A DNA stretch of 53,993 bases from Candidatus Azambacteria bacterium. Its GTDB lineage: Bacteria > Patescibacteriota > Minisyncoccia > GWC2-36-17 > WO2-46-25. Both the position numbers and the translations under genes were made by a program. The DNA is taken from positions 1 through 53,993 of the forward strand of contig JACQDT010000013.1 in the NCBI GenBank assembly GCA_016200965.1. The letters run 5' to 3'. This document shows positions 14,971 through 24,947 of the stretch, one piece after another. The first letter of the stretch is position 1; each line of letters starts with the position of its first letter. The notes below the pieces were generated by a model that was given only the letters and a program-made list of their open reading frames with translations, was not told where the DNA came from and made no database searches.

Positions 14971-15190
14971 CCCAGTATATCAACCTCGACTAATGAAACG
15001 TTAGGGTGCGCCGTTGGATTGTCGTGGTCTGCGATATTTGGTCTCTATTGGGATAATCAATGCAAACGAGACGTTTCATCAAACGGCATGCCCAGATAGA
15101 GGACTTCGGCTGACTTCGTCATCATGCCGCTTCGCGGCTGCCGAAGTGCTTCTACTGGGCGTGCCCAGTCGAGGTTGTATTACTGGGCAT
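14971..15190. repeat. Structured repeated element in the lepA leader (copy 1)
   Basis: ~21-bp imperfect terminal inverted repeats; homologous to 53871-53993. Confidence 0.8.
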
Positions 15191-15258
15191 CCTACAAACG
15201 TATCATACGAAAGACGAAAAGTGAAGCGCTCCGAAAGCGGAGCGCGAAACCCCGTACC

Positions 15259-15309
15259 GTCCCGCCCTTTTGGTAAAGAAAGTTCTTTTCCTAACCAAAA
15301 GGGCGGGAC
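15259..15309. mobile_element. ~50-bp hairpin/MITE-like element of the CCCGCCCTTTTG family
   Basis: GTCCCGCCCTTTTGG...CCAAAAGGGCGGGAC; same termini and internal AAAGAA..TTCC as the copies inside rnpB. Confidence 0.75.
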
Positions 15310-15322
15310 TGGTGCGCGGGAT

Positions 15323-22238: not shown

Positions 22239-23627
22239 TTAACATGCGGAGCGGTCGCGGAACAACACCACACACGTCCGAAATAAAATTTTTATATCCA
22301 GCAACAACGACCAATTTTCTATGTAATACGTGTCCAATTTTACCTCTTCCTCGAAAGGAAGATCGGACGAGCCGGAGGTCTGCGCCATGCCGGTCATCCC
22401 GGCTTTTATCACCAGCAGCTTCTTATGATGCGCTTCGTACCGCGCGACCTCTTCCGGCTCATGCGGCCGCGGCCCCACCAAACTCATTTCTCCCTTCAAT
22501 ACATTCCATAATTGCGGCAACTCATCAATGCGCGTTTTGCGCAAAAACCTCCCCGCGCGCGTCACGCGCGGGTCATTGTGGATTTTAAACAATGGACCGC
22601 CGTCTTTGCGTTCGTTGTATCGCATAAGCTCCGGCTTAAGCTCGTGCGCGTTATCTACCATAGAACGGAATTTGTACATGGTGAACCGGCGGCCCAGCGT
22701 CACGCGGTCAAGCGCCACCATGACCGGCCCCTTGGAATCCAGCTTGATCCACACCGCCACCACGCCGAAAAACGGCGCGCACAGCGCAAGCCCGAGCGCG
22801 GAACCGAAAAGATCCGCCACGCGCTTAGCCACCCTCCCCCACCCGTCAAGCGCGGTATGCTTGACTTCAATGAGCGGAACGCCGCCGATCACATTCATTT
22901 CCACATGCGTCGTCAGCGTCTGAAACAGCGTCGGGGCGAAACGGAAATTCAAATGCATATCTCTGCAAAACTCCGCAAGCTCGGCAATGGCTTCTTTCGC
23001 GTAATCGGCGTCCCCTACCAACACCGTATCAATGTTCTGACCGGCCATCGCTCTTTTAATTTCGTCTATATCCGTCGCCGCGATGCGCCCCGCCACCGTA
23101 TATCCCAGCGATCGATCGCGCTCCATCTCGCGCGCAAGAATATGAGTGGCCTCGTTGTCGCCCACAAGCAATACGCGCTCCGTTCCCATCCGTCGGGTCG
23201 CAATGAGATACCGTTGAAAGCCCCGAAACACCCATCGCCCCACAAGCACATACACAATGGAAAACGCCCACGAGGCAATGATAATAAAACGGGAATCAAA
23301 CCATTCCCGCGTCGCAAAGATGTACACGATCACGGCCATCACGGCGAACGAACAGGAAGCGATCACATGAAAAAATTCCTGCAAAACATCACTGCGCTGA
23401 GTGCGGTATAAACCGGTCAGCGCGAATACCAACAGCCAGAACGGAATAATGGCGGCGAGCATGAGCGCGTATCGTTCAAACGGTAAATTGAGATAAAAAA
23501 GCACCGGCCGCCATTCGGCAATAAAGGAACTCGTGCGCAAAAAATACGCCGACAATCCCGCGCAAAAAAGCATGAGCGCATCAAGCGGAACCAGCGCGAA
23601 CACAAAAAAAAGAGACGGCTTTCTCAT
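22239..23627 (-). CDS. Polyprenyl-phosphate sugar phosphotransferase (WcaJ/WbaP-like)
   Basis: KRVAD, YKFRSM, DPRVTRAG, DELPQLWNVLKGEMSLVGPRP; start uncertain (could extend to 23663). Confidence 0.93.
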   Translation of the reverse strand: MRKPSLFFVFALVPLDALMLFCAGLSAYFLRTSSFIAEWRPVLFYLNLPFERYALMLAAIIPFWLLVFALTGLYRTQRSDVLQEFFHVIASCSFAVMAVIVYIFATREWFDSRFIIIASWAFSIVYVLVGRWVFRGFQRYLIATRRMGTERVLLVGDNEATHILAREMERDRSLGYTVAGRIAATDIDEIKRAMAGQNIDTVLVGDADYAKEAIAELAEFCRDMHLNFRFAPTLFQTLTTHVEMNVIGGVPLIEVKHTALDGWGRVAKRVADLFGSALGLALCAPFFGVVAVWIKLDSKGPVMVALDRVTLGRRFTMYKFRSMVDNAHELKPELMRYNERKDGGPLFKIHNDPRVTRAGRFLRKTRIDELPQLWNVLKGEMSLVGPRPHEPEEVARYEAHHKKLLVIKAGMTGMAQTSGSSDLPFEEEVKLDTYYIENWSLLLDIKILFRTCVVLFRDRSAC

Positions 23628-23756
23628 GCCATCCATCATACAGAACACACGGTATTTTTTCAATTGGGCAAACTAAAACCTCAACTGGATAGCTAAGGTC
23701 GAAACATGCGAACATTCAGAGCAAACGCGCAAGATAACTATAAGCCGGATTCTGTA

Positions 23757-23806
23757 TCCCGCCCTTTTGGAAAAGAATGTTTTTATTCCATGCCAAAAGG
23801 GCGGGA
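23757..23806. mobile_element. CCCGCCCTTTTG-family hairpin occupying the P19 position of RNase P RNA
   Basis: TCCCGCCCTTTTGG...CCAAAAGGGCGGGA between the P2 3' strand and ACAGAATCCGGC. Confidence 0.75.
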
Positions 23807-24046
23807 CGGCAATCATTTCTCTTGGCGCGCCGTTACCGGCGCGCTCGTGCGACTACCTTGCCCCTCGACGTCGCCTAGGGGCAATTTTGTCTTGCACCTC
23901 GTAAGGATTTGGCCGTTTCACCCCCTCACTTGCAAGCAAGTGAGGGGCTACGCCCCGAATAATCAGGGCGCCCGAATATCGTTTCCAATATCGGCGTCTC
24001 TGTTCGCACCTCTGGGGTCGCCCCCGACGGCCGTTAGCCGCTACGT

Positions 24047-24100
24047 TGCCCAGCCCTTTTGGCAAAGAATAATTCTATTCCATACCAAAAGAGCTGGGCA
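24047..24100. mobile_element. CCCGCCCTTTTG-family hairpin at the P5.1-equivalent position of RNase P RNA
   Basis: TGCCCAGCCCTTTTGG...CCAAAAGAGCTGGGCA just 3' of the GAAAGTCCGGACTC segment. Confidence 0.7.
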
Positions 24101-24117
24101 GGAGTCCGGACTTTCCT

Positions 24118-24436
24118 CCCCGCCCTTTTGATGTTATAGGTTTTGTTGATATTATGATAAGCATGTACTATGTATATCTTATCAAAAGTACAAAGGCGGA
24201 TTTTCTCTATGTTGGAGTAACTGATGATCTCCGCAGGAGATTTTCCCAACATAACTCCAAAAAAGAAATATCAACAAAACCCTACGCACCTTTCAAACTG
24301 ATTTACTACGAGGCCTATTGTAGTAAAAAAGATGCTCTCATCCGCGAAATCAAGTTGAAACATCACGGGAGTGTGATAGGACACCTGAAAAAGCGCGTAC
24401 AGCATGGTTTGAAGGAATAGCATCAAAAGGGCGGGG
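24118..24436. mobile_element. 319-bp GIY-YIG-encoding insert forming P3 of RNase P RNA
   Basis: Perfect 16-bp inverted repeats CCCCGCCCTTTTGATG / CATCAAAAGGGCGGGG between GCAATCG and AGGAAAGTCC. Confidence 0.85.
24163..24420 (+). CDS. Small GIY-YIG nuclease, antisense inside rnpB
   Basis: YYVYLI...LYVGVT...RRRFSQHN...YYEAY...ALIREIKLK; TAG abuts the right inverted repeat. Confidence 0.93.
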   Translation: MYYVYLIKSTKADFLYVGVTDDLRRRFSQHNSKKEISTKPYAPFKLIYYEAYCSKKDALIREIKLKHHGSVIGHLKKRVQHGLKE

Positions 24437-24527
24437 CGATTGCCCGTTATCTTATATCGTTTGCTCTGAATATTCACATTTCAAAGAATACATACACAAT
24501 ACAGAGAATACGCTATATTGTCAACAT

Positions 24528-24947
24528 CTAATTGTCCAACGCTTCATTTACCATTTTATCGGCAAGCGTGTTCTGCTCGCGCCGGACGTGCATGAACGCC
24601 ACGCCCGCGAAATCCGTTTTGAGATTCCATACCTCTATGAACAGCTGTTGGATGTGCGGCGTGGAAAGCTTGTACTGCCCGTTTAACTGGCGCACGGCGA
24701 GCTCGGAGTCCATGCGCATATCTATAATCATTTTTTTTGCTTTTTCTTTGCCGTACAGTTGCTTGGCTTTTTTGAGCGAGAAAATAATCGCTTTGTATTC
24801 GGCTTCGTTGTTGGTGCCGTCCTGGACGCGCTCGCCGTACGTATGAAGCGGCTGTCCCGTGCGCGCGTCCACGAACGCCACCCCGATTGCCGAAGGCCCC
24901 GGATTCCCCCGCGACCCCCCGTCGGTATAGATGATGAGTGTATCCAT
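24528..24947 (-). CDS. rnhA: Ribonuclease HI family protein
   Basis: YTDGGSRGNPG, TNNEAEY, DSELAV, REQNTLADKMVN. Confidence 0.93.
   Translation of the reverse strand: MDTLIIYTDGGSRGNPGPSAIGVAFVDARTGQPLHTYGERVQDGTNNEAEYKAIIFSLKKAKQLYGKEKAKKMIIDMRMDSELAVRQLNGQYKLSTPHIQQLFIEVWNLKTDFAGVAFMHVRREQNTLADKMVNEALDN

Follow-up and report, generated by a model that had tools for sequence, protein, structure and literature searches.

A GIY-YIG nuclease gene inside helix P3 of the RNase P RNA gene of a Candidatus Azambacteria bacterium, read as a tolerated hairpin cassette

The window considered here is a stretch of 53,993 nucleotides (GenBank assembly GCA_016200965.1, contig JACQDT010000013.1, positions 1 to 53,993) from Candidatus Azambacteria bacterium, a tiny groundwater bacterium, and our subject is the gene for RNase P RNA, rnpB, on its minus strand (23731..24453). 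This gene, of bacterial type A, carries a cassette in place of the whole of helix P3: two inverted repeat arms pair as the P3 stem, and the loop between them holds a gene for a small GIY-YIG nuclease in the opposite orientation. We think it likely that this is a portable hairpin cassette tolerated in a functional rnpB, whose P3 consists of the cassette's own terminal repeat arms. The assembly to which the window belongs, an 866-kb bin that is 94% complete, is called G000 below and its contigs are numbered C; other genomes and loci carry G and L numbers.

A preliminary description, made from the letters alone, had proposed an rnpB of about 720 nt with four conserved core motifs, and all four were read in place on the minus strand, in a gene of 723 nt that is identified by the Rfam model RF00010, the motifs, the predicted fold and an alignment with rnpB genes of the same family, nine of which align with both strands of P4. 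P1 (8 bp; AAGATAAC ... GTTATCTT) pairs 24446-24453 with 23731-23738 and P2 (7 bp; GGCAATC ... GATTGCC) pairs 24438-24444 with 23808-23814, both helices being read in the sequence and predicted in the minimum-free-energy fold. Directly after the ...CAATCG of P2 comes the 5' strand of P3, which is one repeat arm (CCCCGCCCTTTTGATG, 24421..24436, reaching to 24417 with one mismatch); the 3' strand of P3 is the other arm (CATCAAAAGGGCGGGG, 24118..24133, extending to 24137), directly before AGGAAAGTCCGG, the 5' strand of P4 (24106-24117), whose 3' strand, ACAGAATCCGGCTTA, is found at 23741-23755. The 319-bp insert (24118-24436) is bounded by ...CAATCG and AGGAAAGTCC, and its ends form a perfect inverted repeat of 16 nt, or one of 20 nt at 95% complementarity (24118-24137 / 24417-24436), around a loop of 287 nt that is filled by the open reading frame (ORF) and a short stretch upstream of it. 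This flanking repeat scored 17, whereas the best of 30 shuffles reached 12, and the minimum-free-energy fold of the 723-nt RNA contains the P1, P2 and P3 stems (z -9.6; 0/20 shuffles as stable). Repeat search and fold thus agree with the earlier proposal that the repeats make up P3, and the cassette takes the place of the entire P3 hairpin, its repeat directly adjoining P2 and P4.

The loop had been said to hold an intact gene on the opposite strand whose stop codon touches the repeat, and this is what was found: 24163..24420 on the plus strand, antisense to rnpB, encodes a single-domain GIY-YIG protein of 85 aa (PF01541, E 4.9e-17), and its TAG stop codon (24418-24420) adjoins the 16-nt arm. 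An alternative upstream ATG at 24154 would give a protein of 88 aa (ORF 24154-24420; the PF01541 match spans residues 4-70 of this form), and the homologues start at the ATG at 24163. When the window protein was aligned with 11 homologues, residues Y5, Y16, G18, R26, H30, T38, Y48, E50, R61, E62 and K66 were invariant in all 12 sequences; because Y5, Y16, G18, R26, H30, E50, R61 and E62 among them are of the catalytic type, the nuclease looks intact. It has no DNA-binding domain, its best relative in the PDB is a UPF0213 protein (E 1.3e-5), and a search of NCBIfam with it returned sub-threshold matches only.

At the gathering thresholds of Rfam, RF00010 gives no match at the rnpB gene of the window; with E-value thresholds it reaches 78.5 bits (E 6e-24), below the gathering cut-off of 100. 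The alignment behind this score mistakes a hairpin at 24047-24100 for P3 and loses the 5' strand of P4, so that the sub-threshold score is accounted for by the insert, which misleads the alignment of the model. This low score and the 94% completeness of the bin could also be taken to indicate a dead copy of rnpB, disrupted by the insertion, with the 5' processing of tRNAs left to another gene or to an unassembled second rnpB. Such a situation is highly unlikely, since the core motifs and the strands of P1, P2 and P4 are all intact, the single RF00010 match in G000 is the sole rnpB found in this genome, rnpA is present (PF00825, 90.2 bits, contig C37), a profile search of G000 with PIN_5 (PF08745), which we take to be the family of the protein-only HARP enzymes, gave no match, and a Peribacteria genome (L092, described below) likewise has a cassette-bearing rnpB only. 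The intact second rnpB that the preliminary description had named as a reason for doubt was looked for in G000 and not found, and we infer that the cassette-bearing gene probably functions.

Mis-assembly had been named as another such reason, and it was examined with Logan contigs placed on positions 23500-24700. In sample X1 a single contig runs over 23500-24630 with zero differences, and in X3 (23985-24408 and 24381-24700) and X4 (23500-24353 and 24344-24700) overlapping contigs bridge both junctions; no contig joint that skips the insert was seen in the three samples, the contigs of which show 0-1 differences. Since copies of the arms occur elsewhere in the genome, and short-read assemblies tend to break at repeats, one could argue for a chimera in which the cassette was joined into rnpB through its repeated hairpin arms. 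With both junctions covered in three samples, with arms that pair exactly at the position required for P3 and with an independent genome (L092) of the same architecture, we give such an artefact hardly any credence. The rnpB of a related genome (G011) is cut off at the edge of a contig, which is what assembly breaks at repeats would produce.

RF00010 matches were obtained in 38 of 41 genomes (G000 included), with spans of 306-500 nt. The comparison with empty P3 helices that had been suggested at the outset was run on nine rnpB genes of the same family, in none of which P3 contains an ORF, and on a metagenome contig (L169) that is syntenic with the window (RNase H-like gene, rnpB, sugar transferase) and has a short P3, also free of any ORF. 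P3 measures about 12-25 nt in six of these genomes (G002, G003, G005, G007, G008 and G010), about 12 nt in G006 and more in G004 (about 105 nt) and G009 (about 125 nt), and in all nine genes and in L169 it fills the exact space between ...ATCG and AGGAAAGTCC. Both in the window and in G009 the entire P3 is the repeat of an element, with no trace of an older stem. Neither RF00010 nor the rnpB DNA of the window detected an rnpB in G001, of the same genus, and this bin, 90% complete and in about 120 contigs, is uninformative; a pattern scan of metagenomes gave two loci, none of them from the same genus.

No intron family is present among the 16 Rfam matches obtained at E<=10. Because there is no intron signature, because P3 is peripheral and variable in length, because the gene is the sole rnpB beside an rnpA and because relatives have a short P3 devoid of ORF, the best reading of the cassette is that of a tolerated, non-splicing, insertion-like element, as the preliminary description had it when it spoke of a peripheral stem-loop.

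Two further helices of the same rnpB, overlooked in that description, are ORF-less copies of the cassette hairpin, whose repeat family we call F1. One is the helix after P5 (24047..24100, minus strand), 79% identical over 57 nt to the other, which occupies the P18 position directly before ACAGAATCCGGCTTA (23757..23806, minus strand) and has an arm identical to the P3 arm at 12/12 positions. With one mismatch allowed, the 12-mer of the F1 arm occurs 8 times in the window for 0.52 expected, a count that 0/100 shuffles reach. Five paired copies are known in the genome: the P3 cassette, these two rnpB helices, one hairpin inside the 16S rRNA gene (C7:2691-2739, from a repeat search of the genome) and one intergenic hairpin of the window (15259..15309, no strand assigned, also from the repeat search and without Rfam match). 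A second family, F2 (CCCCTCACTTG), surrounds a GIY-YIG gene at C8:5021-5325 and was likewise located by repeat search; it recurs twice in the 16S gene, once in the 23S gene (with one mismatch), at C38:115-191 and as a short helix of the rnpB gene of the window (23922-23947). With 0.9% of the genome between them, the four RNA genes hold 4/5 of the paired F1 and 4/6 of the F2 copies. Of the repeat-flanked GIY-YIG genes of G000, 4/5 have ORF-less copies, and the ORF-less families include elements of about 200-230 nt with at least six copies outside contig C9. Across relatives, the rnpB hairpins at these three places (P3, P18 and the helix after P5) are alike within one genome and vary from genus to genus, and those of G009 and of G011 are similar to the arms that flank that genome's own GIY-YIG gene.

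Some further observations concern these hairpins. The 16S gene (C7:1298-2925) is 1,628 nt long and has acquired hairpins at three or more places (one of F1, two of F2), and the 23S gene (C29:16670-21729) is 5,060 nt long for a model of 2,925 positions. The rnpB genes of L044 (in G011) and L168 contain hairpin insertions of 140-150 nt in the specificity domain or in the P15-P16 region. The intergenic region 14971-15322 of the window, in which no Rfam family is matched, carries a long inverted-repeat hairpin with the stem CAACCTCGACT at 14981-15177, followed by the intergenic F1 hairpin; this stem recurs on six other contigs, and the hairpin, with arms similar to the ones that flank the GIY-YIG gene of C9, may be an element related to the family of about 200-230 nt. 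SRP RNA (RF00169) was not found in G000 and, since hairpin insertions hide rnpB from its model, may be disguised in a similar way.

The cassette also recurs as a unit elsewhere. G000 encodes seven GIY-YIG paralogues, and among the GIY-YIG ORFs of G000 and its relatives 22/33 are flanked by an inverted repeat that scores above all 30 shuffles (48/101 in a wider set), one arm lying about 20-45 nt 5' of the start codon and the other overlapping or adjoining the stop codon. The closest proteins in species-representative genomes are only 55-58% identical to that of the window and come from other phyla. In two Omnitrophota cassettes (L087 and L088), whose proteins are in this range of identity, the repeat core, CCCCGCCCTTTTG / CAAAAGGGCGGGG, is identical to that of the window over 13 nt on both arms; a three-way DNA alignment of these cassettes with that of the window becomes similar at this core and ceases to be so at the partner core, the flanks being unrelated, and neither L087 nor L088 has an RNase P or rRNA gene as its neighbour. 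As homology thus starts and ends at the 13-nt core, the cassette is a discrete unit. In a quick tree of 101 homologues (85 columns, midpoint root), the window protein is sister to the L087 and L088 proteins, with a support of 95 in the Shimodaira-Hasegawa-like approximate likelihood ratio test (SH-aLRT), and cassettes within one subclade have common arm sequences.

Homologues of the window protein were encountered inside other stable RNA genes. In the Peribacteria bin L092, rnpB reads ...CCGATCG, TCCCACCCATTCA, ORF 1501-1758, TGAATGGGTGGGA and AGGAAAGTCCGGGC, and ends at ACAGAACCCGGCTTA; here the ORF lies in P3 and is sense to rnpB, which scores 118 bits with RF00010 and is the sole rnpB match of the 1.9-Mb assembly. 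In the Moranbacteria bin L095 a cassette lies in the 16S gene, between positions equivalent to about 63 and about 257 of the G000 gene, where, by reading of its flanks, it would stand in for helix 6. In the Rickettsiales bin L136 a GIY-YIG copy is situated inside a 23S gene (RF02541 over 870-1986), with flanks that read like helix 25, presumably the classical site of intervening sequences in 23S rRNA. The three intact RNA-gene cases belong to three subclades of the tree. The ORF of L136 (1380-1760, with the repeat CCCAGCCTCCAAAT.../...ATTTGGTGGCTGGG) is split by a frameshift, and this copy is therefore a decaying one.

The preliminary description had assigned the nuclease a possible role in homing, and this part of it found no support. 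A classical homing endonuclease would make a double-stranded cut in insert-free rnpB and be copied by repair, possibly with RNA splicing; GIY-YIG is a known fold of such enzymes, the window protein has a weak match to TIGR01453 (group I intron endonuclease; 21.6 bits for a cut-off of 56), and two unrelated rnpB genes have the same P3 boundaries. We nevertheless regard homing as very unlikely: no intron family was matched, a protein of 85 aa without DNA-binding domain is encoded, and both the repeats and the P3 flanks differ between the window and the L092 cases. In addition, characterised relatives leave double-stranded DNA uncut according to the text of Chenal et al. 2025 (Nat Commun, PMC11893778), and Tsurumaki et al. 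2024 (J Bacteriol, PMC11270868) place the GIY-YIG insertions of the Candidate Phyla Radiation (CPR) outside homing.

The latter paper reports that rRNA genes of CPR bacteria can contain insertions, not of the intron type, that encode a GIY-YIG ORF and are located at the tops or bases of stem-loops. The cassette of the window resembles them in its small GIY-YIG ORF, in the absence of group I or group II intron features and in its place in a stem-loop of an essential single-copy RNA, and differs from them in its host, which is rnpB and not 16S or 23S rRNA. The terms 'RNase P', 'inverted repeat' and 'hairpin' do not occur in that text, nor does it describe the architecture of the repeats, cognate hairpins without ORF or an antisense ORF. 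The Ssn nucleases presented in the text of Chenal et al. (PMC11893778) have a single GIY-YIG domain (cd10448), are encoded between NTS/SRM hairpin repeats and cut single-stranded DNA only, next to their own repeat; the authors liken Ssn/NTS to IS200/IS605-REP and propose that the SsnA of Neisseria controls incoming single-stranded DNA. Like Ssn (about 90 aa), the window protein of 85 aa is a single GIY-YIG domain with the catalytic-type residues kept, and its gene lies between inverted hairpin-forming repeats that recur without ORF in the genome, as the five paired F1 copies do. Unlike the Ssn genes with their two self-contained hairpins of about 28 nt, it is enclosed by one long stem, and its copies sit inside stable RNA genes, a location foreign to the text of that paper, which never mentions rRNA, tRNA, RNase P or Patescibacteria. 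The cassette is therefore best called Ssn-like in architecture, a description that stops short of membership in the family. For oversized RNase P RNAs the closest precedent is given by Lui et al. 2021 (PLoS Comput Biol, PMC8172020), whose text describes RNase P RNAs of CPR bacteria that have greatly extended helices and score below the thresholds of Rfam; the rnpB of the window is similarly sub-threshold, has extended helices and needed manual refolding, and differs in its ORF, as no ORF-bearing helix or GIY-YIG gene is reported in that text.

Our literature search found no report of a protein-coding gene in an RNase P RNA helix, subscription papers and supplements being outside its scope. The preliminary statement that no characterised system of this kind exists is thus sustained for rnpB in the literature searched and too broad otherwise, as the same kind of cassette is on record, in the texts available, from CPR rRNA genes and the repeat-nuclease-repeat order from Ssn modules. 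The kind of element is already known from these two sources; what is new is the rnpB host and the link between both literatures.

Two other known systems offer parallels. Intervening sequences at helices 25 and 45 of the 23S rRNA of Salmonella, Leptospira and Coxiella are excised by RNase III, some of them with an ORF, and are tolerated in single-copy genes; to our knowledge their ORFs belong to the 23S_rRNA_IVP family and not to GIY-YIG. The window shares with them a long stem (20 nt at 95%, about two helical turns) that replaces a terminal helix, an RNase III encoded in the genome (PF14622, 127 bits, contig C7) and, through L136, a homologous cassette at a helix-25-like 23S site; it differs in that its host is rnpB, where excision or fragmentation is a prediction only. 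In RAYT/REPIN and IS/MITE systems a gene is flanked by inverted repeat copies that also occur as short palindromic copies without ORF, and the ORF-less copies found for most repeat-flanked GIY-YIG genes of G000 are of this pattern. Unlike those systems, the enzyme of the window is a hydrolytic GIY-YIG nuclease and not a Y1/HUH transposase, and we know of no transposition chemistry for a GIY-YIG nuclease.

The surroundings of tRNA genes give another view of these nucleases. Among loci L049-L165, a tRNA gene lies within 120 nt (<=120 nt) of 22/112 GIY-YIG ORF matches; in the resulting pairs ORF and tRNA are on the same strand in 24/24 and the tRNA is downstream in 14, a count that is no test, given the relatedness of the loci. 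In many cases a distance of 12-50 nt separates the nuclease stop codon from the start of the tRNA, so that cleavage by RNase P would set the 3' end of the nuclease mRNA. At C8:4990-5915 (L010), two tandem GIY-YIG genes lie 5' of a tRNA-Ala on the same strand; between these genes are pieces like the 5' half and the anticodon arm of tRNA-Ala and short hairpins (TCCCGAT...ATCGAGGA), and the tRNA-Ala itself is enclosed by a 16-bp stem.

The co-orientation of all these pairs suggests integration into host transcription units, and it is one of the points in favour of a domesticated, immobile nested gene with a host function, such as the control of incoming single-stranded DNA suggested for Neisseria SsnA, which would persist in a length-tolerant helix while the hairpins serve as protein-binding or structural modules and are not products of transposition. 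The retention of seven paralogues in an 866-kb genome, the lack of insertion polymorphism in the contigs of X1, X3 and X4 and the discussion of a domesticated NTS-ssnA-NTS unit in the text of Chenal et al. (PMC11893778) go in the same direction. We consider domestication unlikely all the same, as the closest cassettes come from another phylum and have the same repeat core in different flanks, as the hairpin families at the same rnpB positions differ between genera and are alike within a genome, and as the three RNA-gene insertions are in three subclades, all of which points to turnover and transfer.

For the tolerated cassette that we prefer, we propose the following mechanism. The cassette consists of a repeat, a short untranslated stretch, the 85-aa GIY-YIG gene and a repeat; the arms would pair in the transcript and restore the P3 stem, so that the catalytic core (P1, P2, P4) would fold normally. 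The loop of 287 nt could then be kept as a giant extension of P3, or it could be trimmed by RNase III at the 16-20-bp stem without religation, as in the intervening sequences of 23S rRNA, to leave a two-piece ribozyme held by P1, P2 and the remainder of P3; we hold retention and excision to be about equally probable. Transcription of the nuclease gene would start from a separate promoter opposite to rnpB, for which a candidate (TTGATG-16-TATTAT, with TG; consensus match only) lies at 24128..24155 on the plus strand and overlaps the repeat arm in part; its -10 box ends 7 nt 5' of the ATG at 24163, and the nuclease mRNA may be leaderless. By analogy with Ssn, the target of the nuclease would be the hairpin repeat as single-stranded DNA, and the enzyme would, directly or via repair, drive the spread or maintenance of its repeat family, with autonomous and miniature forms like those of RAYT/REPIN or IS/MITE, and in gene-dense genomes cassettes would survive at the terminal hairpins of stable RNA genes and in tRNA leaders.

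Several points weigh against a mobile cassette tolerated in a functional rnpB. No pair of empty and occupied alleles from one species is present among the genomes and metagenome loci compared, and the mobility of the cassette we infer from sequence comparison. Short GC-rich hairpins could be alike by convergence, and only the copies of 48-57 nt at 79-91% identity are safe. Expression of the nuclease should suffer from the position of its ORF opposite rnpB, a gene that is presumably transcribed at a high rate. The three samples that support the assembly are from one study, X1 is possibly the source sample and contigs drop rare variants; as the genome is a 94%-complete bin, a second rnpB could still exist; and in X9, the one RNA run that shared words with the locus (5% of the sampled words), the contigs are of relatives' rnpB only, with short P3. 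As for the analogy with Ssn, the published degenerate SRM motif has 0 matches in the whole of G000. The same motif was found beside homologues in a same-order relative (L073, in G012) and at L115, L132 and L138, and the canonical-motif-flanked homologues of G012/L073 are 34-43% identical to the window protein. In the quick tree the latter is placed in a clade of 72 rows, sister to another of 29 rows that includes the 3 rows labelled as SRM-flanked (SH-aLRT 97 for the branch), and the biochemistry of Ssn may therefore not transfer to it.

In a broader and more speculative reading, which we put forward tentatively and at somewhat less than an even chance, GIY-YIG cassettes and their ORF-less copies would be mobile 'helix modules' that specifically capture tRNA leaders and the terminal hairpins of genes for stable RNAs (in rnpB P3, P18 and the helix after P5, in 16S rRNA helix 6 and others, in 23S rRNA helix 25). 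The nuclease would then recognise its hairpin where strong transcription of RNA genes leaves DNA single-stranded. If this were true, such modules would be a main source of helix expansions and intervening sequences in CPR rRNAs and RNase P RNAs, and a ribozyme in two pieces or with a giant P3 would be a normal state of RNase P in some lineages.

Independently of that broader reading, an essential single-copy ribozyme gene with a gene inside one of its helices is now represented by two independent cases, the window and L092. They join three literatures that are silent on each other in this respect, on Ssn nucleases and their repeats, on the GIY-YIG insertions of CPR rRNA genes and on the oversized helices of CPR RNase P RNAs, and they offer a testable origin for the expansion helices of stable RNAs in reduced genomes. 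The prediction is that the RNase P RNA of this organism is either fragmented or provided with a P3 of 320 nt. On the practical side, annotation by covariance models overlooks or misaligns such rnpB genes, as shown by the score obtained here below the Rfam cut-off.

Some minor features of the locus complete this description. Inside the cassette, a perfect inverted repeat of 15 nt (24139-24153 / 24267-24281, without strand; 0/100 shuffles reach it) pairs the region 5' of the start codon with nt 105-119 of the ORF (codons 35-40) and forms a helix in the predicted fold of rnpB. At the same position, 0/11 other cassettes tested have such a repeat; a different position, the start codon, is involved in the significant repeat of L049 (0/100 shuffles) and in the borderline one of L053 (3/100). 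The 15-nt repeat could compact the P3 loop or control translation, and as it does not recur at that position in other cassettes we draw no mechanism from it.

Around the whole of rnpB, outside P1, the repeat search detected a stem of 22 nt (91%; 24458..24479 pairs with 23706-23727, minus strand), which is an extended P1 or a processing stem. As its GGAGCAAAC...GTTTGCTCC flanks also surround the rnpB genes of same-family relatives, a conserved precursor-processing stem, like that of rRNA operons, is suggested. A promoter-like site for rnpB (TTGACA-17-TATTGT, 10/12, by consensus match only) is found at 24496..24524 on the minus strand, and the upstream neighbour of rnpB, at 24528-24947, encodes an RNase H-like protein of 139 aa (Pfam RVT_3, E 1.8e-17) that is also present in L169.

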